Below are positions 20,315 to 43,974 of a stretch of 45,895 bases of DNA, one piece after another; position 1 is the first letter of the stretch, and each line of letters begins with the position of its first letter. The DNA lies in the IMG/VR virus record IMGVR_UViG_3300031732_000043, positions 1 through 45,895 of that record, one strand, 5' to 3'. Under the pieces are notes generated by a model. That model did not search any database and had not been told where the DNA came from. It saw only the letters and a program-made list of their open reading frames with translations. The translations under genes were made by a program, and so were the position numbers. The DNA is from a virus. Taxonomy: Duplodnaviria > Caudoviricetes.

Positions 20315-20556
20315 GGTTAGTTCGGTGTTAGGTGCGATGTTAGTTCAGTGTTAGGTGTTAGGGTGATTCAGCAGTGCAGTGTTAGGCAGATTCCCAGTTT
20401 TCACCCACCGCTATGATGAATGAATGTTAGATCGGTGTTAGCCAGTATTACTACTACTTATCTGACTTAAACAGTAGTAAGTAGTAGTGTGCAGAAACCA
20501 ACCGAATCTAACAGCTACGCCGTTTCTGCACCCTAACACCTAACACTCACCTAACA
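20315..20556. repeat. Iteron array around an AT-rich palindrome; candidate replication origin
   Basis: 7 forward TGTTAG and 4 reverse CTAACA; perfect 19 bp inverted repeat 20347-65/20529-47; central inverted repeat ACTACTACTTA 20450-60/TAAGTAGTAGT 20478-88. Confidence 0.75.
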
Positions 20557-20590: not shown

Positions 20591-21196
20591 TCAGTTCGTG
20601 TTCCCCATCCAGATGGCGTTCTTTCCACGATGCTTCTTCAGGGTGACAGAACCGAGGTAATACCCATCTTCACGGTTTTCCTTCAGTCGTTCCATCACCC
20701 GCCTGGCCTTCACGGATGGATTCGCTGAATCCTGAAACCCCATCCACTTCACGATTTTCGAGGAAGTGACAGGCGAACCCACCATCCGTTCCTGGATGAT
20801 CTTCAGAAATAACTGGTTTGAACGCGCATCGATCAGGCTGTTAGCAGCCGGAAAATCAGCCATTTCCTGCACGAATTCAGCACCGGATTCACCGCCGACT
20901 TTGCCGTTATCCAACCGATCAGCCAGATCTTCCACGGTTTCCACGTTCTGTTCGACATCCTGAACCTGCCCTTCGAGCGATTCGATCCGTTCGGCCATCT
21001 GATCCATCCGTTCTCGCTGTTCCTGAATCACTTCCCACAGTGCGGCCCGTGATGGAATATCCACATCGCCGTGGGTTTCCTGCACTTCGCCTGCCTGTTG
21101 TTCCAGGTGTTCCAGTATCTGTTCATCTGACGGTGCTTCAGCATCCACCTGATCGGGATCTTTCCCGATTCCAGTGGATTCAGCAGATGTTCCCAT
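20591..21196 (-). CDS. Coiled-coil plus C-terminal winged-helix-like protein; candidate origin-binding protein
   Basis: Acidic coiled coil, then basic VTSSKIVKWMG...KARRVMERL...VTLKKHRGKNAIW; flanked by iteron repeats. Confidence 0.65.
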   Translation of the reverse strand: MGTSAESTGIGKDPDQVDAEAPSDEQILEHLEQQAGEVQETHGDVDIPSRAALWEVIQEQRERMDQMAERIESLEGQVQDVEQNVETVEDLADRLDNGKVGGESGAEFVQEMADFPAANSLIDARSNQLFLKIIQERMVGSPVTSSKIVKWMGFQDSANPSVKARRVMERLKENREDGYYLGSVTLKKHRGKNAIWMGNTN

Positions 21197-21294
21197 GATT
21201 GATCACCGTTCCACCGACAGCACCGTTCCACCAGTGAACTGCCGGTAATCTGTGCTGTTCTGTTCCCCCCGACAAATAGGTTAGGGAACCGTTC

Positions 21295-21332
21295 GTTCAG
21301 TGTTAGGTGCGATGTTAGTTCGGTGTTAGGTG
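21295..21332. promoter_or_regulatory. Second iteron cluster between divergent genes
   Basis: 36/38 nt identical to 20320-20357. Confidence 0.7.
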
Positions 21333-30404: not shown

Positions 30405-30683
30405 AACCCACCTGCACGAATCGATCCTAAGGCAGCCAGCAGCCGTTCTGAACGGATTCGTTTCTGAAGGTGCCATCCATAGGGCCACCATCGATTACGC
30501 ACACGAGCATACAGCCGTGGCTTCGAGGAAGCAAATCAGCAGTGAAGGGGATTCCCCGTGGATGGAAGATCCATCCTGGTGGAACGGTGGTTTCCCCCTG
30601 GATCCTGATCGGATCCAGCAGGCACGTGGTTCTTCAGCCTACCAGGATATAGGTGTTCGGGAACTGCTTTGCAGGCTGCGGAA

Positions 30684-30709
30684 GTTAGTTCAGTGTTAGT
30701 TCAGCGTTA
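30684..30709. promoter_or_regulatory. Third iteron cluster upstream of the early region
   Basis: GTTAGTTCAGT-GTTAGTTCAGC-GTTA with 11 bp period, matching the 20339-54 unit. Confidence 0.6.
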
Positions 30710-30784
30710 TGGTGGCAGGGTGGCAGGGAAAGAACTAAGTGACACCCACTGCAACCTTCAGGTAGGAACGAACCACATCCAGAT

Positions 30785-31205
30785 ATGGCCTGGCCAGTTC
30801 GGTGCTACCCCGTGAACATCCCTGGGCTGCACTGAACCAGGCGGGCGAAGCCCCCGAACGGGAACCAGCGGCCACAATACTGGTTTCCCGGCTGTGGTGG
30901 CCTGCCCCGTAAGCACACGGATCACCACAGTCGGCAGCAGTGAACAGGCGGCAGGAACGGGAAGATCACCCTGGCGTGGTGGGAACCCCGATCCAGCAGG
31001 CTTCAGCCCAGGCGAACGGCTGGAACCCCTGGCAGAAACGTGCTGTTCCGAGGGATGGCCAGCAGTTCAGAACCCAGCGGGGGAAGATGGGCCAGAACCG
31101 AGGATCAGGCGTGGAACGGACACATCAGATCCTGCTGGGTGAAAGGCCCAGTGCTATGGAAACCAGCGTAAGGCAGTGTTTTCTTCCCTGGCTGCTGGAA
31201 GTACA
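30785..31205 (+). ncRNA. Candidate large structured non-coding RNA or leader
   Basis: No acidic ORF; multiple G-U-containing helices and GNRA-like loops. Confidence 0.45.
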
Positions 31206-31218
31206 ATGAAACGGGTTA

Positions 31219-31286
31219 CACCGGAAACCCGCCAGGTTTCGGCCTGGTGGGACGGTGGCCTTTGATCCTGGGGCTGATACAGGATC
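31219..31286 (+). ncRNA. Hairpin plus pseudoknot RNA motif, copy A
   Basis: CACCG/CGGTG, CCCGCCAGG/CCTGGTGGG, GCCT/GGGC, GATCCTG/CAGGATC. Confidence 0.75.
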
Positions 31287-31319
31287 CGTTCGCACAAACG
31301 CAATGTGTGCATCAGAACG

Positions 31320-31613
31320 ATGAACGACAGTAGAATCATCGAAACGGTCGAAGTAAAGGTATTCAAGGAAGATCCGGCAGCCTTCGGTGGTGAAGAAACC
31401 CACAGCAGGCCGTGGTGGGCTGATGATGTGGATGGCGATGAACACCCTTACTGGGTGATCGATTTCCTCGAAGCCGGTGGCTGGCTGAAGCACCTGCCGG
31501 AAGCCGAAGTGGGTGAACCAGTGGAAGGTATCACGGTTCACTACAACCCCGAGGAACGGAACGACATCCAGAAAGTGGTGCTGCCGGATGGCAGCGAAGT
31601 TACGGAACGGTGA
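31320..31613 (+). CDS. Hypothetical early protein
   Basis: Acidic ORF; ATG 34 nt after motif copy A. Confidence 0.7.
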   Translation: MNDSRIIETVEVKVFKEDPAAFGGEETHSRPWWADDVDGDEHPYWVIDFLEAGGWLKHLPEAEVGEPVEGITVHYNPEERNDIQKVVLPDGSEVTER

Positions 31614-31912
31614 TCAGCATGATCGAAGAACTTCGAGAACATGATAGCGTGGAATCGGTGGAACAGGCAGAATATGATCCGGCTTACTGGATGGTGGCCG
31701 TGGATAGCCAGGAATCCTTCCGGGATACTTGGATGAAGCAGCCCAGTGGGACCTTCCGGTTCCCCCAGGAAGTAATCGATCAGGTCCAGATGGATCTGGC
31801 CTGGCAGATCGATAAACTCGAATTCCGAGTGTCGGGTGATTACGCTGGCTGTTTCACCCTTCGGCTGGTTCGGGACCCCTCGAAGATCCAGGCGGCACAG
31901 GGTGATCTGTGA
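31610..31912 (+). CDS. Hypothetical protein
   Basis: Acidic, overlap-coupled. Confidence 0.7.
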   Translation: MISMIEELREHDSVESVEQAEYDPAYWMVAVDSQESFRDTWMKQPSGTFRFPQEVIDQVQMDLAWQIDKLEFRVSGDYAGCFTLRLVRDPSKIQAAQGDL

Positions 31913-32292
31913 TGGTGTTCGCTGATAAGGTAATCGAAAGCAGCGGCAGCCCCGATGTATGGATCACCGAGAATCTGAACCAGGATCCAGATGATCGGGC
32001 GGCAGAATCCATTCGGGTGGTGTGGAAACAGATCAGGATGAACATGGGCCTGGTTCGTGTGGTGGCTGTGTCCGTGGATCGTATCCAGGATGGATGCAAA
32101 AGTGGCCGAAGCCATAATATCCCGGAATCAGTTCCCGAGGATCACACCGAGGCACTGGATACCCAGGTGCAGTTAGATCTGCTGGATCGATACACCCGTG
32201 AACAGCGGATGGTGTTCCCCCAGTTCGATCTGGAACGGAACGTGAACCCGGATCCAGTGGATCCCGAGGAAGCCAGGGAAGGTGATGTGTGA
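31909..32292 (+). CDS. Hypothetical protein
   Basis: Acidic, overlap-coupled. Confidence 0.7.
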   Translation: MMVFADKVIESSGSPDVWITENLNQDPDDRAAESIRVVWKQIRMNMGLVRVVAVSVDRIQDGCKSGRSHNIPESVPEDHTEALDTQVQLDLLDRYTREQRMVFPQFDLERNVNPDPVDPEEAREGDV

Positions 32293-32492
32293 TGTCGGTG
32301 AAGTTCACCTGCCCAGACTGCGGGGAAGAACATCCGGCTGGATCCGAGGAACGGATCGGTGAACCGGAAACCACGGTGGCCAGGCGTTCGACTGGCTTCA
32401 GTGGTGGAATTACCAGCCTGAACGATATGAACGGCAGTTTCGCTTACGTGGCGGAACTGCCGTGTGGCCACCGGATCATCACGGTGAACTGA
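32289..32492 (+). CDS. Zn-finger microprotein
   Basis: CPDCG and LPCGH. Confidence 0.65.
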   Translation: MMSVKFTCPDCGEEHPAGSEERIGEPETTVARRSTGFSGGITSLNDMNGSFAYVAELPCGHRIITVN

Positions 32493-32541
32493 TCAGGCGG
32501 GGGCCTGGAACCGGATCCCCCGGTTCAAACCCCACCTTTTC

Positions 32542-32625
32542 CACTGGAATTCCACCGAGGAACCACCTGTATGCAGGTAATTCCTGGTGGAACGGTGCTG
32601 GCTAATCCTGCCAGAAACCAGGATT
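32542..32625 (+). ncRNA. Hairpin plus pseudoknot RNA motif, copy B
   Basis: CACTG/CGGTG, TCCACC/GGTGGA extended stem, CTGG/CCAG, AATCCTG/CAGGATT. Confidence 0.75.
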
Positions 32626-32666
32626 CGATGGCTGCCACGATACGGCAGCACCGAGGTAATACAACG

Positions 32667-32936
32667 ATGGAAGCGAACGAACTACCCGAACGGATTGAAC
32701 CGGCTGATGAATATCTCGACGTGGGAACCCGATTCCTGGATAATGACTGGGGATCGGAAGCCCAGTGGAACCAATACGAACAGGTCACATCCGTAGTGTA
32801 TCACCATGATAATGCACACGGCGAACGGGTGTTCAGCGTGATCGGTGAAGATGTTCCTGGATGCTTCACGTGGGTGTGCGAATCGGATGTGATGTTCGTG
32901 AACGGTGCTGAATCGGAAGAACGGCTGGTGGCCTGA
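32667..32936 (+). CDS. Hypothetical protein
   Basis: Acidic; GAGGT SD-like motif before ATG 32667. Confidence 0.7.
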   Translation: MEANELPERIEPADEYLDVGTRFLDNDWGSEAQWNQYEQVTSVVYHHDNAHGERVFSVIGEDVPGCFTWVCESDVMFVNGAESEERLVA

Positions 32937-32939
32937 ACC

Positions 32940-33059
32940 ATGAACCAGAACAGATCTGGATTCCACGGGAAGTATCGGGCTGCCTGGAAGAACGGACAGA
33001 CCACCAGCGGCTTCGATGCACGGCTGGTGCTGGAAGAACGGCTGGCGGGTGATCGATGA
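32940..33059 (+). CDS. 39 aa microprotein
   Basis: Manual translation MNQNRSGFHGKYRAAW...; fills the gap and is coupled to the next ORF. Confidence 0.45.
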   Translation: MNQNRSGFHGKYRAAWKNGQTTSGFDARLVLEERLAGDR

Positions 33060-33205
33060 TGGAACCCGAGGAAGCCACCCAGTTCCAGCGGAACATCTTG
33101 TGGCTTGCCCGTGAAATCCGGCAGAAAGATGCAATCGAACAGATTCGGGAAGTGGCCGATCACATCGATTCAATGGATTCCTGGCCTGGTGATCAGGATG
33201 TCTGA
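33059..33205 (+). CDS. 48 aa microprotein
   Basis: Manual translation MEPEEATQFQRNILW...; coupled junctions. Confidence 0.5.
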   Translation: MEPEEATQFQRNILWLAREIRQKDAIEQIREVADHIDSMDSWPGDQDV

Positions 33206-33551
33206 AGATCGGAACATCACGATGCACTGCCACGCTGAACTGGCTGAAACGAACGAACACGGAAACCCGAAAACGTGCAGCACCGAACTAACCGAGGAAG
33301 AACACGGCCAGTTCGTGAAGCAACCTCGGGGTGAAGATCGGTTCGGGACCCGGCTGGAAGATCGGTTCCAGATGGGCTGCATCCGGCTAACCTGCCCCGA
33401 CTGTGAAACGGTGCATCACGCCTGCAATATGTGCCACGATGCACAGGGGCCTAACGGCTGGTATCGGGGTGAATCGACTGGGACGCAGATGGCGTGCGAT
33501 AACTGCAACCAGAAAGAAGCCGCCAGACAGCGGCAGGATCCACATTTCTAA
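33198..33551 (+). CDS. Multi-CxxC zinc-binding protein
   Basis: CPDC, CNMC, CDNC. Confidence 0.65.
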   Translation: MSEDRNITMHCHAELAETNEHGNPKTCSTELTEEEHGQFVKQPRGEDRFGTRLEDRFQMGCIRLTCPDCETVHHACNMCHDAQGPNGWYRGESTGTQMACDNCNQKEAARQRQDPHF

Positions 33552-33553
33552 CG

Positions 33554-33889
33554 ATGAACGACATAGCGAACCACATCCAGCAGATGGATGAACAGGAACT
33601 GTGGGATCAACTGGGCCAGCGAATCCAGCAGGAACACGGTGGCACCGAGGAAGGCGAAACAGTTCTGATCACCCTAACGATCAGCCAGGAACTGTTCGAT
33701 CACGGTGCTGGCCTGGATCAGTGCATCAGTACCGGAATCGCGTGGGGTGTTGATCAGGTTGAAGCATCCAGGGAAAAACTGGAATCGGCCAGCGATGCGA
33801 TTCTGGGATTCCCGAACGATGGCGTGATCCATATCGATCAGATCCGGGAAGAACTGGTTCGGACCCTCGGGGATGATCATGGTGGCTGA
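33554..33889 (+). CDS. Hypothetical protein
   Basis: Acidic ORF. Confidence 0.7.
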   Translation: MNDIANHIQQMDEQELWDQLGQRIQQEHGGTEEGETVLITLTISQELFDHGAGLDQCISTGIAWGVDQVEASREKLESASDAILGFPNDGVIHIDQIREELVRTLGDDHGG

Positions 33890-34103
33890 AGCCACCCTTC
33901 AAATCCCTCGGATCGAAGCCGAACGGGATACGAATGATCATATTCAGATCGATCATCTGCGTGGGGGAACGGTTGCACTGGATACCGATCAGGCGGCGAA
34001 GGTGGCACTGTTCATTCTGGCCACGAACCCGATGCGGGAACCCGGAACCTGCCAGATCTGTGGCCGGCGAAAAGGAACCAGCGGAAATGGGGGGATGCGA
34101 TGA
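33879..34103 (+). CDS. Hypothetical protein with CQIC
   Basis: Overlap-coupled ORF. Confidence 0.55.
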   Translation: MVAEATLQIPRIEAERDTNDHIQIDHLRGGTVALDTDQAAKVALFILATNPMREPGTCQICGRRKGTSGNGGMR

Positions 34104-34222
34104 AGGGCAAAATCCAGAACTGCCTCGGTTGTGATCGGTTGGTGAATCGATTAGTGAACCCGGACCACTGTCCGAACTGCCAGCGGAAATTCAGGCGTGG
34201 GTTCGGTATCGCTGGGCCGTGA
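34100..34222 (+). CDS. 40 aa Zn-finger microprotein
   Basis: MKGKIQNCLGCDRLVNRLVNPDHCPNCQRKFRRGFGIAGP (manual translation). Confidence 0.6.
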   Translation: MKGKIQNCLGCDRLVNRLVNPDHCPNCQRKFRRGFGIAGP

Positions 34223-34242
34223 TCCCCACCGAGGCATATTTC

Positions 34243-34315
34243 AACCGGAAATCCACCAGGTGGTTCCCGTCGCCTGGTGGAACGGTTCGGTTTGAACCTG
34301 GCCGCAATCAGGTTC
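34243..34315 (+). ncRNA. Hairpin plus pseudoknot RNA motif, copy C
   Basis: AACCG/CGGTT, TCCACCAGG/CCTGGTGGA, CGGT/GCCG, GAACCTG/CAGGTTC. Confidence 0.75.
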
Positions 34316-34357
34316 CGACCGGCTGCCGTAAGCAGCAGCGGATTCGAGGAAGGAACT

Positions 34358-35647
34358 ATGGCTAACAAGCCAGTGAACCCCGATAACTGGGATTCGTATG
34401 CCCAGGATGGGGAACGTGAAGTGGTACAGAACAAAGAACGCGGCTGTGGATACCTGAAGGCCGAGAACGCATACATCCGATGTGATCCGGCAGCGTTCAG
34501 CACCGATGGTGTGCTGCCTGGGTTCGTGGCCATCGTGGATGATAACGGGGATCTGCATCCGATTCCGTTCAAAGAATCGCTGCCCCGTGGATACGAATCG
34601 ATTAACGGAACGAACTTCCTGGCAGCAGCGGAAACCGAACGGAACTTCCAGCCGCTGTATCCTGGTGGGCCTGATGCGTCGGAATCCCACCAGGAAGCCC
34701 ATGAATCAGCACTGGAAAATCACGTGGAAGCAGGGCAGTATGATTCCCTCGAAGCCGTTCCACGTTCGGAACTGGCCCGCCATCTGGATCGGATGGCCAC
34801 CGATGGGTTCGACGGCCCCCACTGGGGAAAGATCACGGCAGCGAACAGCCAGGATCTGATGATGCGTGTGGGGAAATCATACTATGATTCCCCCTGGGAT
34901 TACATCGATGAAACGCTGGAACTGGGGCTGAATAAGGGAATTTCGGTTCACTCGAATAAATCCCCGCCAGTGATCCAGCCTGGCAGAACCCGTGCGTGGC
35001 TGATCCACCCCCACGCCTGTGGTGAAGATATGCCGGGGGTGATCGGCTTCAGTTACCTAACCCGAACCATCTTCACCACCGATAACGATGGCGAGGTTCC
35101 GGCCTACGCTGAAGATTACGCTGATGCAGGGAAGATGGATATTGTGGATGTAGGTGAACCGGACCCGAGGGAAGAAGATGAAGATCGGGAAGGGGAAGAT
35201 GTGGCTGAAGGCCATCAAACCCTGGATAACTTCGATCTGGAAGAAGGCAGAACCCCCGGCCACGAACCGGGCAGCAGTGCAGCGGGATCAGCTCTGGAAG
35301 ATGCTGTGGAAGATATGGCTGCCGAAGTGGATGATGTCATTACCAGGGGGGATGTGGTGCCACCCCAGCAGATCGAAGAAATGCAGAAAGCCGAACTGTC
35401 GGAACTGGCTGGCCAGAACTGGCTGAACGTGGATCGGCCACCGGAAGAATATGATGCCATATACGCCTGGAATCAGGGGAAGGAAACAGGCGGTGGCCTG
35501 CTGGGAATCATCGATAACAGGAAGGTGACTGCATCGAATAACTTTTCCTGGAATTCCGAAGAACATCATGGAACCAGTCACGTGGGGCCATACACCGTGG
35601 AAGTTCGTGAACGGGATGGCCAGCGGATGATCCTGGTGGAAAAATGA
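34358..35647 (+). CDS. Large hypothetical protein
   Basis: Likely ATG at 34358; ERGCGYLK and VGKSYYDSPWDYIDE..LGLNKGI; no confident family. Confidence 0.75.
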   Translation: MANKPVNPDNWDSYAQDGEREVVQNKERGCGYLKAENAYIRCDPAAFSTDGVLPGFVAIVDDNGDLHPIPFKESLPRGYESINGTNFLAAAETERNFQPLYPGGPDASESHQEAHESALENHVEAGQYDSLEAVPRSELARHLDRMATDGFDGPHWGKITAANSQDLMMRVGKSYYDSPWDYIDETLELGLNKGISVHSNKSPPVIQPGRTRAWLIHPHACGEDMPGVIGFSYLTRTIFTTDNDGEVPAYAEDYADAGKMDIVDVGEPDPREEDEDREGEDVAEGHQTLDNFDLEEGRTPGHEPGSSAAGSALEDAVEDMAAEVDDVITRGDVVPPQQIEEMQKAELSELAGQNWLNVDRPPEEYDAIYAWNQGKETGGGLLGIIDNRKVTASNNFSWNSEEHHGTSHVGPYTVEVRERDGQRMILVEK

Positions 35648-35787
35648 CTGGCGAAAAGACAGTTCGGATTTTTACTTCGGATCTGAAATCGCTGGCCAGA
35701 TCCAAATCCGTGAAAGCACGGGCTGATGATGGCACCACAGTGCGAATCAGATCACCCCGTGGTGGGCTGGATCCAGATCAGATCTGA
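35644..35787 (+). CDS. 47 aa microprotein
   Basis: Manual translation; ATGA overlap. Confidence 0.45.
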   Translation: MTGEKTVRIFTSDLKSLARSKSVKARADDGTTVRIRSPRGGLDPDQI

Positions 35788-35790
35788 ACC

Positions 35791-35925
35791 ATGCCAGGAA
35801 ATCAGAACGCAGAACTGGCCGATGCTGAACGGCTTTCAGAACAGGCATGGGAATACCATCGGGAACGCCAGTTAAGGGAACTGGGTGTGGATCCTGATGC
35901 ACTGAACGGTGATCAGGATGTCTGA
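35791..35925 (+). CDS. 44 aa microprotein
   Basis: Manual translation; overlaps the PCNA start. Confidence 0.45.
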   Translation: MPGNQNAELADAERLSEQAWEYHRERQLRELGVDPDALNGDQDV

Positions 35926-36712
35926 AGCAGCCCAGGAACCCGAGGAAGGAACCGAACCGATGATGAAGATTATCGCTGAACAGGCACTGCTGGCCGACAT
36001 CGTGGATGCACTGGATCCGCTGGTGCGTGAAGCGAACTTCCAGTGGCTGCCTGGCAGGTTACGAATCTGGGAAGTGGATCCAGCGAACGTGGCCAGCGTT
36101 TACATCGATCTGAACACCGAGGAATCAGATCAGATTCAGCACTATTCCGTGCAGGATGGCGGGTTCAAAAACGGCCTGAAACTGCCCACCCTGGATGATC
36201 TGCTGGGATACGCTGATGCTGATGATCTGGTTCAGATCGAATTCAGCGAATCCCATAACTGGCGGTATCACTTCGATTTCCCCCAGGCTGAAGCAGATGT
36301 GGGCGGGATCGACCCCGATTCGATGCGAAGTCCACCGGATCGGCCATCATTAGACTGGCCAGCCCAGTTCACCCTATCCGGGGAATCGTTCAAAGATGCA
36401 GTGGATCTGAACGATATGTTCAGTGATCACCACACCATCCGTGCAGGCGACGGCCAGGTGCAGTTCGTGGCTGAAGGGGATACGGATGGTGGAACCTTCA
36501 CCCTCGAAGAAGGGGATGGTGAACTGGAATTCCACCAGCACCCAGATTCCGTGCAGCAAGCGATGTTCAGTCTGGATTATATGGGTGACATATCGAAGCC
36601 GCTGAAGAACGTGGATCAGATCACGATGCACGTTTCGGATAATCACCCGGTGCTGATCGAAGCCGGTCTATTCGAGTATATCCTGGCCCCACGGATCGAT
36701 AACAGCCTGTAA
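35918..36712 (+). CDS. pcn: Archaeal PCNA sliding clamp
   Basis: VDPANVASV, IDPDSMRSPPDRPSLD, AEGDTD, MFSLDYM and YILAPRI motifs. Confidence 0.93.
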   Translation: MSEAAQEPEEGTEPMMKIIAEQALLADIVDALDPLVREANFQWLPGRLRIWEVDPANVASVYIDLNTEESDQIQHYSVQDGGFKNGLKLPTLDDLLGYADADDLVQIEFSESHNWRYHFDFPQAEADVGGIDPDSMRSPPDRPSLDWPAQFTLSGESFKDAVDLNDMFSDHHTIRAGDGQVQFVAEGDTDGGTFTLEEGDGELEFHQHPDSVQQAMFSLDYMGDISKPLKNVDQITMHVSDNHPVLIEAGLFEYILAPRIDNSL

Positions 36713-36763
36713 TCGATCCTCGAAGGGGCTGGCCTTCTTCTGTATCGTGACATACGGTTTATA

Positions 36764-36835
36764 AACCGGAAATCCATCAGGTGGCAGCGGCTGCCTGGTG
36801 GAACGGTTCGGCAGCATCTGGCCGAAATCAGATGT
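36764..36835 (+). ncRNA. Hairpin plus pseudoknot RNA motif, copy D
   Basis: AACCG/CGGTT, TCCATCAGG/CCTGGTGGA, CGGC/GCCG, GCATCTG/CAGATGT. Confidence 0.75.
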
Positions 36836-36842
36836 GCTGGCG

Positions 36843-37085
36843 ATGTTCAACAGCAAGCAGAACGCACTGGAACACCGTGATACGGTAATTTCAGTTCTGT
36901 CCGATGCGTTCGGTGAAGATCTGGCCTGGCACACCCATCCCGTGCTGGATGGGTGCGTGGTTCGGATCCCCGAACAGGTGGAACAGGAAGCGAAAGAAGC
37001 CTTCGAGGAAGCCGGATTTCCCATCACAGATCAGGGCAAATCTGGCGACTGGAAGGAACTGAAGGTAAATCCAAAGCATGACTGA
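36843..37085 (+). CDS. Hypothetical protein
   Basis: ATG at 36843, just after motif copy D. Confidence 0.65.
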   Translation: MFNSKQNALEHRDTVISVLSDAFGEDLAWHTHPVLDGCVVRIPEQVEQEAKEAFEEAGFPITDQGKSGDWKELKVNPKHD

Positions 37086-37341
37086 AGAAAACGAAAGCGA
37101 ACACGTGAAGCGAACGGATGAAGGTGCATCGATCCAGGCCGAAATCACCCGAGGAACGGGAACCCGTGATCAGGAAAAATGGCGAATCAAAGGGAAGGGT
37201 GAAACGGCAGTTCAGGCCATCGAAGAATTCAGACAGTCGTATCGGGATGTGATCGGTGAAGATCCTGCTGGATCCCTGGCCGAACACGCCAGGCAGTTCG
37301 ATCCCCAGCGGGATCAGGACGGTGATGAAGATGGAAACTGA
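37078..37341 (+). CDS. Conserved haloarchaeal virus/plasmid protein (DUF7389-like)
   Basis: RTDEGASI...TRGTGTRDQEK motif. Confidence 0.6.
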   Translation: MTEENESEHVKRTDEGASIQAEITRGTGTRDQEKWRIKGKGETAVQAIEEFRQSYRDVIGEDPAGSLAEHARQFDPQRDQDGDEDGN

Positions 37342-37672
37342 ACAGATCGAACTGGCCGATGGCGTTCAGGTGGAAGTGGCCGAAGATCCCGAGGAAGCCG
37401 AACTGGTGGCCACGGCAGCCACGGTTTCGGTCGAAGAAACGGTTTCCACGGGTGATTACGAATCATATAAGCCGTATGCCAGCACCAGGGTGCAGATCAC
37501 CCCTGGGATTCGGCTGGCCAGCGAAAACCACGAACTGGCGTTACGGCAGCGGCTGCTGAACATCCACCGGCAGGTGCATCAGGAAGTGCAGCGGATGATC
37601 GATAACCGGCTATCTGAACCATCCTTCGAGAATTGGGAAGCGAAGATGCTGGGTGATCAGGATGGATCCTGA
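37331..37672 (+). CDS. Hypothetical protein
   Basis: TVSTGDYESYK motif seen in phage hypothetical proteins; acidic. Confidence 0.65.
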   Translation: METEQIELADGVQVEVAEDPEEAELVATAATVSVEETVSTGDYESYKPYASTRVQITPGIRLASENHELALRQRLLNIHRQVHQEVQRMIDNRLSEPSFENWEAKMLGDQDGS

Positions 37673-37997
37673 AGAAGTTCCGAACCCAGATGAAGGTGGA
37701 ACTGATCCCGAGGTTCCCACGGCCACGGTGGATGATACGCTGGTGGTGGAAGATGGCGAACTGATCCTGCCTGATTATCTGGTGGGATACGTCGGTGACT
37801 TCACCATCAGAAGCCCGAACGCGACAGGCAAAATGGACACCACCGAACACGGCCTGGGTGAAACTTCGAGCCTTCTGGGTGTTGTTCCTGAAGATGGGGA
37901 TTATCACAGTGATCTGGAAGCCGGGATGCTGGCCATCCAAACCGAAGAACATCCAGAAAAGGTGTTCAGAATCGTAGAAGGTGGTGACGGTGCCTGA
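37662..37997 (+). CDS. Hypothetical protein
   Basis: Acidic, coupled. Confidence 0.65.
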   Translation: MDPEEVPNPDEGGTDPEVPTATVDDTLVVEDGELILPDYLVGYVGDFTIRSPNATGKMDTTEHGLGETSSLLGVVPEDGDYHSDLEAGMLAIQTEEHPEKVFRIVEGGDGA

Positions 37998-38403
37998 ACG
38001 CACCATCACATACTGGCTGGTGGTGGACTGGAAGCGTGAAAAGATCAAAGCCAGGAAAACCGAACCCAGCCAGTCGGAACTGGGAACGAACGAACTAAAG
38101 GTGGAAGGTGAAATCACCATCCAGAAGCCTGAAATAGAAGTTCCGAAACTGGCCGCTGAACTGAAGATCCCCGAACCTCGGATCAGGCGTGTGCTGGCCG
38201 AAGGGATGGATGTGGATCACCCCGACTGGTGGGAATCAGTGGAAGAAGTTTTCGAGGAACACCCAGATCTGGTGGAAGAACGTGGCGTGGATGCACTGCT
38301 GGGGAAAGTGATGATCACCGATCCTGGCACCCCGAACCCGGAAGATGTGCGTAAAGAAATCCAGGAACGGCTGCACGACATCCACGAACCCAGCGAAATA
38401 TGA
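37981..38403 (+). CDS. Hypothetical protein
   Basis: Acidic, coupled; start may be 37990. Confidence 0.65.
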   Translation: MVTVPERTITYWLVVDWKREKIKARKTEPSQSELGTNELKVEGEITIQKPEIEVPKLAAELKIPEPRIRRVLAEGMDVDHPDWWESVEEVFEEHPDLVEERGVDALLGKVMITDPGTPNPEDVRKEIQERLHDIHEPSEI

Positions 38404-39056
38404 TCCCCGAACTGAATCTTATCCAGGCCAGCATCCTGTTCGTGATTAGCCTGGCGTTCCTGGCCGCTGGCACCTGGCTAAAGCGGGTGGGGAACGCCGA
38501 AGCGAAGAACCGAATCAGGCTGATGTGGCTGGCACTTCGAGGCGAGGATTACACCCAGCCACGGATGGATCCAGGTGAAGGCTGGGTGTTCAATCAATTC
38601 GAGGAACCAGCCCACGCTGAAGATCCAGTGCTGGCGTTGCTGGTTAGATCCAGCCGCGCTGAAGCCCGTTGGTATGCACTTCACACGCTGCTGAATCGGT
38701 GGCAGAACGAACGGCACGAACGGCTTCCGATCAATCAGGATCAAGAACTGGATCGGTTCCTTCGCCAGCAGTTCCGTTCAGCCACCGATGAAGCCCGTGA
38801 AGCCATCGAAGCACGTGCTGAACTAACCACAGTCGAAGATGCAGATTCAATGCAGTGGAAATACGTGATCGAAGATCCGGCCACGGGATACCGGCAGGAA
38901 ATCACGATGTCGGAACGTGATCTGATTAGGCATGGGCCTGGCACCGAAACCCTCCCCCCAGCAGTGCAGAACCGGCTGGATCGGTTCGGGGATCAACTGC
39001 TGCACCAGATAGAAACCGAAGCGGATCTGGAACCCAGGATGTCGGGGGTGGCCTGA
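38400..39056 (+). CDS. Protein with N-terminal TM helix
   Basis: LIQASILFVISLAFLAAGTWL. Confidence 0.7.
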   Translation: MIPELNLIQASILFVISLAFLAAGTWLKRVGNAEAKNRIRLMWLALRGEDYTQPRMDPGEGWVFNQFEEPAHAEDPVLALLVRSSRAEARWYALHTLLNRWQNERHERLPINQDQELDRFLRQQFRSATDEAREAIEARAELTTVEDADSMQWKYVIEDPATGYRQEITMSERDLIRHGPGTETLPPAVQNRLDRFGDQLLHQIETEADLEPRMSGVA

Positions 39057-39059
39057 TCA

Positions 39060-39401
39060 ATGACGAGAAACCCACCCTTTAGCCTGGATGATCGAACGCT
39101 CGAAGAAGTGCTTTCCACCCCAGCCCATCCTGCATCTGGCCGGATCGAATTGGCCGTGGGTGTGGATGAACTGAAAGTGGGATGTGACTGCATCAGCCAG
39201 CTACGGAAGCCAGAACCGAAGCCACGGGATCCAGACCCAGATCTGCCGGATGATCTGCCCGAAGATCCAGACTGGGCTGATCCCACCACCATCGAATCAT
39301 ATGATAAGTGGTGGCTGAAGCAGTGCAGAACGTGTGGTGGGATATTCTGGCGGCACGATGTGAAAGCTGATTATGGTGATCCACGGATGGACATACGATA
39401 A
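39060..39401 (+). CDS. Hypothetical Zn-binding protein
   Basis: CDC and CRTC; Pro/Asp linker. Confidence 0.6.
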   Translation: MTRNPPFSLDDRTLEEVLSTPAHPASGRIELAVGVDELKVGCDCISQLRKPEPKPRDPDPDLPDDLPEDPDWADPTTIESYDKWWLKQCRTCGGIFWRHDVKADYGDPRMDIR

Positions 39402-39404
39402 ACG

Positions 39405-39803
39405 ATGAACGAAAACAACACTGAATCAGATCGGATTTCAGGCGAACAGGGAAGTGTAAAACCCGAGGAAACCCTTACCGATGTCGTTCGGCAGGTGGCC
39501 TTTGCTCGAAGCGATGGCGAAAAGGGCACGATGCGTTCAGCAGCGAACGGTGCCTTCCTGAACTGGCTGGCACAGTTCGCACACTCGGAAGTGGAAGATG
39601 ATCAGGAAATCCTGGCCTTCGCACTGAAGCAGCAGGGATTCGATTCCTGGGAAGATTTCGTGGAATCGTTCCACGCTGCCGATGAAGCCACGATGTCGGC
39701 CAGGAAAACCCTGGAAGAACTGGATGTGAAGGAAAACCTCGGAATCGAAGAAGAACAGAACTTCACCCTGGTGGATCCAGATGAAGGTGATTCAGATGGC
39801 TGA
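39405..39803 (+). CDS. Hypothetical protein
   Basis: Acidic ORF. Confidence 0.7.
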   Translation: MNENNTESDRISGEQGSVKPEETLTDVVRQVAFARSDGEKGTMRSAANGAFLNWLAQFAHSEVEDDQEILAFALKQQGFDSWEDFVESFHAADEATMSARKTLEELDVKENLGIEEEQNFTLVDPDEGDSDG

Positions 39804-40209
39804 AGGGGTGCAGACTGGCGGGGAATACACCTGCACCACGTGCGGTGATCCCCTGAACATCATCGGCCTGATGCAGCACGACTGTGAAGAAGTGCTGTCG
39901 GCAGCCGATCTTTCCCAGGGTGAACGTTCCACGCTGATGTATGTGGAAGCCCGCCTGGTGGATCAGGGGGGTGAACTAGATCTGGAACAGATGAACTACC
40001 ATGATCAGCAGAACCTGAAACTGTTCGGTGCTGCTGGAATTCTGGATGTGACGGAACGCCATCTTTCCGTGAATCACGGGGGGATGGAAGTGGTGAAGTT
40101 CACGGATCGGGGCTGGGATCTGGTTCGGGATTCCCGCCAGATCCGTGCAGCCCAGCACGTGGATGAATCTGTGGACATCGGGGACGTTCCCGAGGAAGGT
40201 GATGGCTGA
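39796..40209 (+). CDS. Hypothetical protein (CxxC plus possible winged helix)
   Basis: CTTCG; ERSTLMYVEARLVDQGG...MN..D...FTDRGW. Confidence 0.65.
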   Translation: MAEGVQTGGEYTCTTCGDPLNIIGLMQHDCEEVLSAADLSQGERSTLMYVEARLVDQGGELDLEQMNYHDQQNLKLFGAAGILDVTERHLSVNHGGMEVVKFTDRGWDLVRDSRQIRAAQHVDESVDIGDVPEEGDG

Positions 40210-40415
40210 TGGTGGTTCCAGTATCACTTCGGCCAGACCGAAGGGGACAGGTGTACGTGAAAGGCCGTGGCTGGATCCCAAAGGAAGAAACCCGCGAATA
40301 TCAGCGAAAGAAGCAGCGTGAAGAAGTACGTGCAGCACACGCTGAAGAAATGTGGCGAAAACACCGAAAACACCGTATCAGGCAGGGAATCGGGCTGATA
40401 TTCGGTGATAACTGA
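40209..40415 (+). CDS. Small basic protein
   Basis: Coupled ORF, R/K rich. Confidence 0.55.
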   Translation: MVVPVSLRPDRRGQVYVKGRGWIPKEETREYQRKKQREEVRAAHAEEMWRKHRKHRIRQGIGLIFGDN

Positions 40416-40825
40416 TGGCCCACCCACTGGCGTGGAAGCGAACGGTGGAACTGGCTGATGCACAGCTTCGGATCAGCCGGAACAGTGTGCTGGGCTTCGA
40501 GGAAGATGAAGATCCCCAGCAGGTGATCCCGCTGCTGATCGATCACGGCCTATTCCAGCAGCCGCTGGGGGACCACCGAGAACTGCACATGAACGGTGGA
40601 AATGAACCCATCCAGATTCAGGTGCAGAACAGCCGTGGTGAAGGAACGTGGGAACTGGTGCTGGAACCTGGCCAGGCGAAAATCACATATCGTGGCTGGC
40701 TGGATGCAGTGATCACCCCATCGTTCGGGTGCAGCATCCTTTCGAGTGAAGAAACCACCATCAGGCGAATCGAACACGAACTGAATCGGATCGGTTATTC
40801 ATTCGAGGAAGCGGAAGGGGGTTGA
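40415..40825 (+). CDS. Hypothetical protein
   Basis: Coupled ORF. Confidence 0.65.
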   Translation: MAHPLAWKRTVELADAQLRISRNSVLGFEEDEDPQQVIPLLIDHGLFQQPLGDHRELHMNGGNEPIQIQVQNSRGEGTWELVLEPGQAKITYRGWLDAVITPSFGCSILSSEETTIRRIEHELNRIGYSFEEAEGG

Positions 40826-40836
40826 ATCCCCTTCCA

Positions 40837-40910
40837 AACCGGAAATCCATCAGGTGGCAGCGGCTGCCTGGTGGAACGGTTCGGCCTGGATCTGGCCGAT
40901 ATACAGATCC
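40837..40910 (+). ncRNA. Hairpin plus pseudoknot RNA motif, copy E
   Basis: AACCG/CGGTT, TCCATCAGG/CCTGGTGGA, CGGC/GCCG, GGATCTG/CAGATCC. Confidence 0.75.
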
Positions 40911-40930: not shown

Positions 40931-41392
40931 ATGGCTTCATTACTGAACGAAACAGCAGAATCCCTGAAAGCGAAGGGGATCAGAATCGAACGCTGGGATG
41001 AAGATCCCAGGAACGGGAAGAATATCGGCTTCAGATGTGGCTTCGAGGAAACCCGCTGGTGGGTTTCAGCACTGAAGCAGATTCCCCGAAACGAAAAGAT
41101 CGGGATTATGGATCGGCTGGCGACGAAAGCAGCGAAACAGGAAGCGATGCTGCTGATCCGCATCGGGACCCGGCGGTGGCCAGGTGATGCGCTGGTGTTC
41201 AATCCAGATGCGTATCTGGATCACGGCGAACGATACACTGCCGATGAAGGCCGGAAGCAGCGTGGGGAACGCTGGATAAATCTGCCAGCATCCTGGGGCT
41301 GTCGGCTATCTGCATACGTGGATGGCACGGATAAACCCAGGGTTCAACCCACCGAAGCCGAGGAAAAACGGCCTGATGGCGGGTGGTTCTGA
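40931..41392 (+). CDS. Hypothetical protein
   Basis: GGTGA SD motif before ATG 40931. Confidence 0.7.
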   Translation: MASLLNETAESLKAKGIRIERWDEDPRNGKNIGFRCGFEETRWWVSALKQIPRNEKIGIMDRLATKAAKQEAMLLIRIGTRRWPGDALVFNPDAYLDHGERYTADEGRKQRGERWINLPASWGCRLSAYVDGTDKPRVQPTEAEEKRPDGGWF

Positions 41393-42900: not shown

Positions 42901-43974
42901 ATGGCCGAAATCCAAACCCCCCGACAGTTCAGGGAAACGCCAGTGCTGGAATCAGTCACACCCACCGCCTGGGAACCACCGAAGCCTGAACCGTTCGATC
43001 CCCAGGCTGCCTTCGAGGAAGCCAGGGAAACGACCGAGAATCTTCGATTCGCACTGTTCAGCGGTGGGTACGACAGCCTGGTGGCCTGCCACCATGCGAT
43101 GGAACAGGATCTGGCCGATGTGATCCTGCACGCCAATACGCTTACCGCCATCCCCGAGAACACCCAGTTCGTTCGGGACGTGTGCGAAGCGTATCACTGG
43201 CCCCTTCGGATCATCGATTCCCCGAAAACGCTCGAAGAATTCGCACTGTCCACCCGGAACGGGGATCCATACGGATTCCCCGGAAATGCAGCCCACAGCA
43301 TTGCGTTCCGGTGGTTCAAAGAACGGGCCTTCCGCCAGGCAGCGAAGAACAACCCAGCCAGGAAGCCAGATCTGGTTACGGGTGTGCGAAAGCGGGAATC
43401 GGAAAAGCGTATGCGAACGGTGACTGGGGAAACCCAGGAAGTGGATCGATTTATCTGGAAGGCCCCGCTGTGGGATAAAACCGATCAGTGGATGAAGCAG
43501 TATATCCAGGAATACGATCTACCCAGATCCATCGTGGTGGAACTGCTGGATCGATCTGGTGACTGTTTCTGTGGATCGTTCGCTGATCGATTCAGTGAAC
43601 TGGATCGGCTGAAGAACCCGTGGCAGCACATCAGTAGTGATCAGGCCAGTACCGTGTGGAATCTGTTCAGCCTGGATCGGATCATTCCGTTTGTGGATGC
43701 ACTGAAGGAATTTCACGACTGGCTGATGGCGGTGGAAGAACGGGTGCAGGCCGAAATCGGAACAGATGAAGGATACTGCTGGTGGGGCCATCCATCGGAT
43801 GATTCCCCAGCACTTCGCACAGCGAAGGCCGAACTGGAAAAAGAAGAAGGCTGCCAGGTGATGCTGTGCGAATCGTGTGAAGATCGAACGACACCGTGGG
43901 AAACGGTATCAGCGGAAGAATACGATCAGATGCAGAACACCGAGGAAGATCAGGATACCAATGAACGACAGTAA
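42901..43974 (+). CDS. PAPS reductase (CysH/DndC-like PP-loop) family protein
   Basis: FSGGYDS PP-loop, GVRKRESEKR, RSGDCFC, C-terminal CESC. Confidence 0.87.
   Translation: MAEIQTPRQFRETPVLESVTPTAWEPPKPEPFDPQAAFEEARETTENLRFALFSGGYDSLVACHHAMEQDLADVILHANTLTAIPENTQFVRDVCEAYHWPLRIIDSPKTLEEFALSTRNGDPYGFPGNAAHSIAFRWFKERAFRQAAKNNPARKPDLVTGVRKRESEKRMRTVTGETQEVDRFIWKAPLWDKTDQWMKQYIQEYDLPRSIVVELLDRSGDCFCGSFADRFSELDRLKNPWQHISSDQASTVWNLFSLDRIIPFVDALKEFHDWLMAVEERVQAEIGTDEGYCWWGHPSDDSPALRTAKAELEKEEGCQVMLCESCEDRTTPWETVSAEEYDQMQNTEEDQDTNERQ

Follow-up and report, generated by a model that had tools for sequence, protein, structure and literature searches.

A repeated bulged hairpin and covarying pseudoknot at the heads of early gene blocks in HHTV-1-like haloviruses

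The DNA analysed here (the window; 45,895 nt) comes from an HHTV-1-like halovirus, a virus of salt-loving archaea. Its early region carries five copies, W1–W5, of an element of about 70 nt that is predicted to fold as a hairpin (P1) followed by a knot (P2/P3). The main features of this region are as follows.

30731–30740, + strand: TATA-like box, predicted early promoter, downstream of GTTAG repeats; its TAAGT is invariant in four viruses
30762–31218, + strand: conserved, covarying, non-coding leader of about 450 nt directly before W1; start approximate
31219–31286, + strand: W1, with P1 at 31219–31257 and the knot at 31258–31286; a third hairpin comes next; ATG at 31320
32542–32625, + strand: W2, with a long apical P1; TTTT ahead of it at 32537 and a third hairpin behind; ATG at 32667
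34243–34315, + strand: W3; ATG at 34358, of a 429-aa gene (HHTV-1 gp52 homologue)
34276–34286, + strand: P1 3′ strand GGTGGAACGGT (example), also at 32586, 36797 and 40870; GGGA variant at 31246
36764–36835, + strand: W4; PCNA gene upstream, with a small hairpin and then TTTATA in between; ATG at 36843 (HHTV-1 gp55 homologue)
40837–40910, + strand: W5, its initial 49 nt those of W4, its P3 different; ATG at 40931
1750–1793, + strand: predicted terminator, a hairpin and long T tract behind the final early gene (the run is circularly permuted); no element

A sequence-only reading of the window had proposed the five-copy element, and its coordinates and P2 and P3 strands were reproduced exactly. 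With 11 further copies from HHTV-1 and two IMG/VR relatives, 16 are available from four viruses, three to five per genome; they represent about five positional loci and are not independent trials. A descriptor written on pairing alone, a bulged hairpin with an adjoining H-type knot, matched nowhere but at W1–W5 on either strand of the window, and once in total across 20 order-4 Markov genomes of equal length, scanned on one strand each. Nested folds of W1–W5 gave z scores of −3.8 to −5.3, equalled by none of 200 shuffles for each copy. A covariance model scored W1–W5 at 64–84 bits, compared with 21 bits for the next match (the antisense of a copy), and recovered a held-out copy, A3, at 43 bits; A3 also forms P2, a helix absent from the model.

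P1 spans 45–90 nt, its pairing maintained across apical inserts of 12–61 nt, and carries a 3-nt bulge located 3′ of a P1a helix of 4–5 bp in 16 of 16 copies. The knot comprises a P2 of 4 bp (3 in two copies), an L1 of 1–2 nt and a P3 of 6–7 bp, with no L2. The short, A-rich L3 of 4–5 nt described earlier is not always kept in the relatives, where L3 measures 2–13 nt. Most conserved bases are paired; the only unpaired ones are those of the GA(A/U) bulge, a single A and the pyrimidine L1. A reading of P1 as interdigitated T-loops, presumably resembling RNase P and T-box, was dropped, since the bases of the putative T-loop are paired in every one of the 16 copies, in one case through a double change. 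T-loops in general are described in the available part of PMC4919913.

Double changes occur at all four P2 pairs and five of the seven P3 pairs, and the knot covariation score was reached by none of 500 shuffles, in a test on 15 of the 16 copies whose MAFFT alignment has some rows out of register. Across 367 cells in the 16 copies, G-U pairs outnumber A-C pairs by 17 to 1; G-U pairs had been noted in P3, and P2 of W1 and W3 contains them too. Together, the P2/P3 covariation and the G-U excess make a + strand RNA fold well supported, as proposed from the G-U pairs, and the view of the element as a viral cis-acting structured RNA heading early gene blocks is supported. P1 behaves differently from the covariation once ascribed to it: within P1a only the outermost pair covaries (C-G 8, A-U 6, mismatch 2; n = 16), and the remaining four P1a and six P1b pairs yield a single double change across the 16 copies. 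The P1 3′ strand, GGTGGRACGGT, does not vary, and substitutions in the 5′ strand lead almost only to wobble pairs. The sequence conservation of P1, together with the separate reuse of its 3′ strand (see below), implies a sequence-specific factor, and one that may act on DNA.

The early-region gaps without a small ORF all contain a copy and the remaining gene junctions overlap or abut; copies stand where the stop/start overlap between genes breaks. The genes downstream encode unrelated small proteins of no known family. The first copy comes after the leader, and where the early run stops there is a hairpin and T tract instead, so the element goes with block starts. An ATG follows just 3′ of each copy, as had been claimed, at 33, 41, 42, 7 and 20 nt from the knot (W1–W5); the third hairpin said to be frequent there folds in W1–W3, weakly (3 bp) in W5, and is absent from W4. 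Upstream, TTT occurs within 8 nt of 11 of the 16 copies and is missing from five (two of the five in the window), compared with a background of 1.7–1.9% of early-region 8-mers and 5.1% in large non-coding regions. The sole run of four or more Ts in HHTV-1 34500–48600 adjoins a copy; seven such runs occur in the window between 30700 and 45895. An A/T run of at least 5 nt at −45 to −15 precedes three of the 16 copies, so that most have no upstream TATA box. Only at locus 4 does TTTAT adjoin P1a, in four of four copies, and there it could be a TATA box.

Away from the elements, the P1 motif occurs by itself at five further non-coding sites in the window, two of them ahead of a gene for a predicted winged-helix protein.

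1695–1703, − strand: stand-alone 9-mer core TGGAACGGT
1936–1946, − strand: stand-alone motif, non-coding, before the terminase small subunit gene
20591–21196, − strand: 201-aa gene, predicted coiled coil and winged helix; candidate motif factor
21205–21236, − strand: tandem motif sites before the ATG of the winged-helix gene
30578–30588, + strand: stand-alone motif, non-coding, ahead of the early promoter; three relatives have it on the other strand

The core 9-mer occupies nine non-coding places in the window and eight places in HHTV-1, with about 0.2 expected per 4 kb. Since a TATA-like box precedes the tandem sites by about 25 nt, they are placed in a predicted 5′ UTR. The first, CACTG-GTGGAA-CGGTG, is invariant in six viruses and forms a near palindrome, CACTG-N6-CGGTG, whose helix is the 5-bp P1a helix of W2, here closing a 6-nt loop; the second shares bases with a GGTGAT ribosome site in five of the six. 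In structural comparison, DNA-binding winged helices make up most of the best matches to the winged-helix protein (Z up to 6.9); Foldseek returned no match at E < 0.001, and a PDB sequence search with the regulator alignment gave coiled-coil matches only. The + strand at 1933–1947 is complementary to 14–15 nt of W2–W5, an antisense idea that was set aside, transcription there being only conjectural.

Rfam 15 has no match to the elements or leader in the window at E up to 10, consistent with the earlier failure to recognize a known family, nor any over elements or leader in L004–L006 at E up to 5. Pattern scans for P1 returned five metagenome and three GTDB matches, none with a knot on inspection, which we read as chance; relaxing the scan on viral sequence raised 24 loci, of which five belong to the three relatives already known and 19 have no P1. 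A search for loci with a PCNA query yielded none. In fragments of three more distant genomes, G003–G005 (capsid 70% identical; 44–89% complete), the best covariance-model match had E = 0.38 and no shared repeat was found. Core-motif matches in G001, at L015:12961 and L065:9262, may be coding. The element is undescribed in the literature searched, which included six of the nine supplements of a catalogue of candidate viral RNAs (PMC10690425).

The copies are located at mosaic breakpoints and mark the boundaries of shuffled cassettes. Copy A2 differs from H2 and B2 at three positions in the 56 nt of P1, and the next 30 nt share 10–11. Among contigs of other strains, four of the five compared turn unrelated close to the 5′ edge of W2, from 6 nt before it to 4 nt inside. 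As a side effect, the common core would act as a crossover point for gene-block shuffling. Two known repeats are similar in this respect: the HF2 intergenic repeats, which also precede halovirus early genes and are tied to shuffling (PMC8707807), and the promoter-stem-loop (PeSL) cassettes of HGTV-1 and T4, likewise repeated, intergenic and tied to genome shuffling (PMC3950731). Both carry TATA-like promoters, however, whereas an AT-rich promoter motif accompanies only three of the 16 copies here, and the covarying knot is a feature of the present elements.

We favour, at a rough probability of 0.4, a reading in which the element is a 5′-boundary element that caps sub-operon mRNAs once the U-rich linker has been cut, and P1 may be a handle for a viral regulator. 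One long early transcript would start from the promoter near 30735; a host nuclease would cut it in the U-rich linker just upstream of each element; and the hairpin and knot would then stall 5′–3′ decay. The nucleases may be aCPSF1 or aRNase J, both archaeal β-CASP RNases. According to the available part of PMC11616081, aCPSF1/FttA favours U-rich RNA. The RNA data comprise one RNA-library run with five short contigs, giving neither ends nor strand; the contig over W2 extends 36 nt upstream of its match start, so the library contained uncut RNA or DNA. A pure barrier leaves the invariance and reuse of the P1 3′ strand unexplained, which calls for a second, putative role: the strand may be a handle for a viral regulator, possibly the winged-helix protein.

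One close parallel is the xrRNA-D class of diantho-, polero- and umbraviruses, described here from the available part of PMC6299227. These plant-virus knots are likewise compact and intergenic, with stems little conserved in sequence, ahead of coding sequence at the 5′ ends of coding subgenomic RNAs, and, as here, the pseudoknot is supported by covariation. In xrRNA-D, however, the 5′-most helix is itself knotted and the loops are conserved, whereas here a separate, sequence-conserved and self-contained hairpin precedes a knot with variable loops. The setting also differs: a dsDNA archaeal virus, three to five copies per genome, and nuclease resistance that is only putative.

Control of translation appears unlikely, whether the element would promote de novo initiation where each coupled block begins or act as an operator for the winged-helix protein, which would also repress its own mRNA; yet copies are located exactly where the stop/start overlap is lost, the knot comes within 7 nt of an ATG and the tandem motif lies in the predicted 5′ UTR of the winged-helix gene. 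The H-type knot of the T4/T2 gene 32 operator, with an L1 of 1–2 nt and a second stem of 6–7 bp before a start codon, has stem and loop lengths that the present elements share; it is single-copy, bound by gp32 and without an upstream conserved hairpin, whereas ours are multi-copy, preceded by a conserved hairpin and unmatched in Rfam. Against translation, the knot-to-start spacing ranges from 7 to 42 nt with or without the third hairpin, several copies have an ordinary SD-like sequence, and the knot sequence is unconstrained. Slightly less probable still is a nut- or put-like antiterminator, in which the nascent element, with or without a viral protein, gives read-through of the U-patch or of later terminators. 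A U-patch or hairpin immediately upstream of most copies, their general lack of internal promoters and the long structured leader at the operon start would fit, yet the element lies downstream of the U-patch, and the early operon has few T runs to read through. [quoted passage not shown]

We consider it improbable that GGTGGAACGGT is primarily a winged-helix operator in DNA, a roadblock or activator site within a promoter-stem-loop-like cassette, with the RNA fold secondary. The invariant P1 3′ strand, the enrichment of the core at non-coding places, the near palindrome, the structural matches of the protein and the inversion of the site before the early promoter relative to three relatives would all suit such a site, but it does not account for the covariation of the knot, its RNA loop geometry or the G-U bias, nor for P1 pairing preserved over long apical inserts. 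The seemingly strong avoidance of the motif by coding sequence loses significance under a codon-aware null (0 seen, 0.78 and 0.72 expected), and the absence of both gene and element from the fetched parts of G003–G005 is unspecific because these lack the whole early module. An undescribed class of self-cleaving ribozyme, splitting the early transcript into blocks, is more improbable again, despite a compact, multi-copy, intergenic knot: conserved bases are chiefly paired, and no Rfam ribozyme matched at E up to 10, including hammerhead, HDV-like, twister, pistol and hatchet, whose topologies differ. There is halovirus precedent in the available part of PMC3088659, where a hammerhead variant of HF1/HF2 lies 13 nt before the first early-operon gene and an mRNA 5′ end maps no more than 3 nt from where it cuts; the position is the same, but the hammerhead core is absent here. 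Cleavage by the host tRNA splicing endonuclease in the bulge after P1a seems very improbable. The 3-nt bulge, 3′ of a short helix in every copy, resembles half a bulge-helix-bulge, but the second bulge and its outer helix are absent (outer helix 0–2 bp in 16 of 16) and the Haloferax enzyme strictly needs the complete motif (PMC7714728, available part).

Bulged hairpins between blocks also recall the T7 early transcript, in which five RNase III hairpins, the first after a leader, are without the knot found here; to our knowledge, archaea generally lack RNase III.

More broadly, and doubtfully, the early operon may be under an RNA-level network of the 450-nt structured leader, repeated knot caps resistant to archaeal 5′–3′ nucleases or to termination, and a winged-helix protein that regulates itself and recognizes one P1a helix on all of them. 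Cutting, stalling, read-through and binding are directly testable because the element is short, natural compensatory variants exist, and both HHTV-1 and its host are cultured. Very few structured cis-acting RNAs of archaeal viruses appear in the literature searched, and the finding bears on how the long early operons of archaeal viruses face U-tract, nuclease-driven termination. If true, the RNA-level network would be the first archaeal exonuclease-resistant RNA or RNA-directed antitermination system within that literature, and a portable 70-nt mRNA cap would serve haloarchaeal genetics as a tool.

The window, a virus record of 45.9 kb, encodes a terminase sharing 71% identity with the one from Haloarcula hispanica tailed virus 1 (HHTV-1; Madisaviridae). 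Both sequencing runs containing more than half of its early region are labelled halite metagenome.

Features of the window
20316-20437, +: GTTAG repeat cluster
20512-20555, −: GTTAG repeat cluster
21280-21325, +: GTTAG repeat cluster
30404: end of structural genes, then a non-coding stretch
30684-30695, +: GTTAG repeat cluster
30762-31218, +: leader (~450 nt), non-coding, conserved, covarying, directly before the first element copy; no Rfam match
after the non-coding stretch, ~15 kb, +: early region of small genes, mostly unknown
31219-31286, 32542-32625, 34243-34315, 36764-36835 and 40837-40910, +: element copies W1–W5

Named early genes encode PCNA, Hjc, DUF4326 and a PAPS-reductase-like protein; the PAPS-reductase-domain gene (42901-43974) possibly acts in DNA modification. 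The GTTAG repeats, often spaced by 11 bp, are kept in relatives next to predicted promoters; they probably serve as sites on the DNA for a regulator or a replication protein. Strong word bias across the window (seen versus expected: TGAG, 3 versus 40; GGAG, 6 versus 56; CTAG, 2 versus 18; AGCT, 21 versus 178; CGAG, 150 versus 44) suggests restriction avoidance.

The ~70-nt element, predicted to fold as a hairpin (P1) followed by an H-type pseudoknot (P2 and P3), parses at all five positions proposed in the sequence-only reading. Its shared architecture is borne out by a pairing-only search of the window, which returns these five and no other (20 simulated genomes give one match), and each nested fold is better than 200 of 200 shuffles. 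Four viruses hold 16 copies: five in the window, four each in HHTV-1 and the IMG/VR relative G002, and three in a second relative, G001. In a MAFFT alignment of 15 copies, double changes at 4 of 4 P2 pairs and 5 of 7 P3 pairs uphold the claimed covariation; the alignment's covariation score is matched by none of 500 shuffles, in a test that relatedness inflates by the tool's own warning, and sliding the structures along the alignment lowers the paired fraction to 21–45%. The model, built without the sixteenth copy, still found it at 43 bits, and that copy also forms P2, a helix not encoded in the model. The parse of all 16 copies (367 paired cells) contains 17 G-U against 1 A-C, with 9 other mismatches, indicating the + strand as the RNA, as first read.

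As supposed, an Rfam search gave no match. Outside this clade, pattern scans covering metagenomes, GTDB and IMG/VR gave no copies; they require near-exact motifs, so diverged forms would escape. In the literature searched, which did not include the first description of the HHTV-1 genome or three supplements of PMC10690425, no account of the element was found. We regard it as an undescribed RNA family of archaeal viruses whose predicted structure is well supported by comparison. Some copies are followed by a third hairpin with a covarying stem (32630-32650 in the window; equivalents in L003, which is HHTV-1, and in L004 and L005), its loop often 7 nt of the form WCGWWAC. At L003 35069-35248 the annotated start of HHTV-1 gp43 falls within copy H1, the ATG downstream of the element being likelier; gp41 and gp42, annotated in the conserved non-coding region, are possibly spurious.

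The two modules are under opposite constraint. The knot is fixed in shape and free in sequence (P2 4 bp, or 3 in two copies; L1 1–2 nt; P3 6–7 bp; L2 absent), whereas the P1 3′ strand, GGTGGRACGGT, is constant across the 16 copies except at R and its 5′ partner changes almost only to wobble pairs, which argues that the 3′ strand is read as sequence. The proposed P1a covariation accordingly stands at the outermost pair but not at P1's other pairs. The apical part ranges over 12–61 nt. The motif core, TGGAACGGT, expected ~0.2 times per 4 kb, occurs at nine window sites, all non-coding, four within elements and five alone. In six viruses, two of the lone sites stand in tandem upstream of the ATG of a 201-aa gene on the minus strand; the one listed first, CACTG-GTGGAA-CGGTG, is invariant there and makes, as RNA, the P1a helix with a hexaloop and, as DNA, a near palindrome. 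Structure prediction gives the protein a coiled coil and a winged helix (pLDDT averaging 73 and exceeding 90 in the C-terminal domain), with middling structural matches (Z up to 6.9) that speak to fold only; we infer that it may bind the motif. Compared with HHTV-1, G001 and G002, a motif-bearing structured segment (~30540-30605) lies in the opposite orientation. Two distant relatives (L060, L062) have a 70% identical capsid protein and an unrelated early module; element and winged-helix gene are absent from their examined parts.

Every early-region gap lacking a small ORF contains a copy, the remaining junctions overlapping or abutting; as first read, the elements lead early gene blocks. At the close of the early run there is a hairpin with a T tract rather than an element. 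In 11 of 16 copies a TTT is found no more than 8 nt upstream (background 2–5%), a count drawn from about five loci and therefore not 16 independent trials; only 3 of 16 have an A/T run upstream at promoter distance. Within the leader, which follows a TATA-like box at conserved spacing, 37 of 98 predicted pairs are doubly changed among four viruses, the structure deriving from the same alignment, and the single-sequence fold reaches a z of only −2.0. The leader contains a GCAGAAAC ... GTGGAACGG pair flanking a variable helix, which we take to be reminiscent of RNase P specificity-domain joints. Mosaicism is evident among the copies: W4 is the same as W5 over the first 49 nt, copy A2 combines the P1 of H2/B2 with a different knot and gene, and strain contigs switch sequence at the W2 5′ edge.

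Several other roles were weighed. Translation control is unlikely, and antitermination slightly more so. A DNA operator cassette, favoured by the near palindrome and disfavoured by the G-U excess, is improbable. HF2-type promoter repeats (PMC8707807) and HGTV-1 promoter stem-loops (PMC3950731) each share one feature with the element, which belongs to neither. A new ribozyme, for which PMC3088659 offers a halovirus precedent, is less likely still; the element resembles catalogued ribozymes in one feature but does not belong among them. The same holds for bulge–helix–bulge substrates, and cleavage by splicing endonuclease is very improbable.

We favour, at a probability of roughly 0.4, a 5′-boundary cap. 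Against it, one RNA-library contig spans the 5′ boundary of an element, and the knot forms no ring around the 5′ end. The element resembles xrRNA-D in one respect but differs from that class in topology and is not a member. An RNase J family model has a match in Haloferax volcanii, a control genome (score relative to cut-off not given). FttA/aCPSF1 prefers U-rich RNA and cuts ~23 nt from the growing end (PMC11616081), making it unlikely that the element stops the terminating enzyme itself, an option raised in the sequence-only reading. Under the cap model, which has a parallel in what intergenic xrRNAs may do for coding subgenomic RNAs (PMC6299227), the early transcript would be cut in the U-rich linker and 5′–3′ decay arrested at the element, leaving the mRNA of each gene block separately stable.
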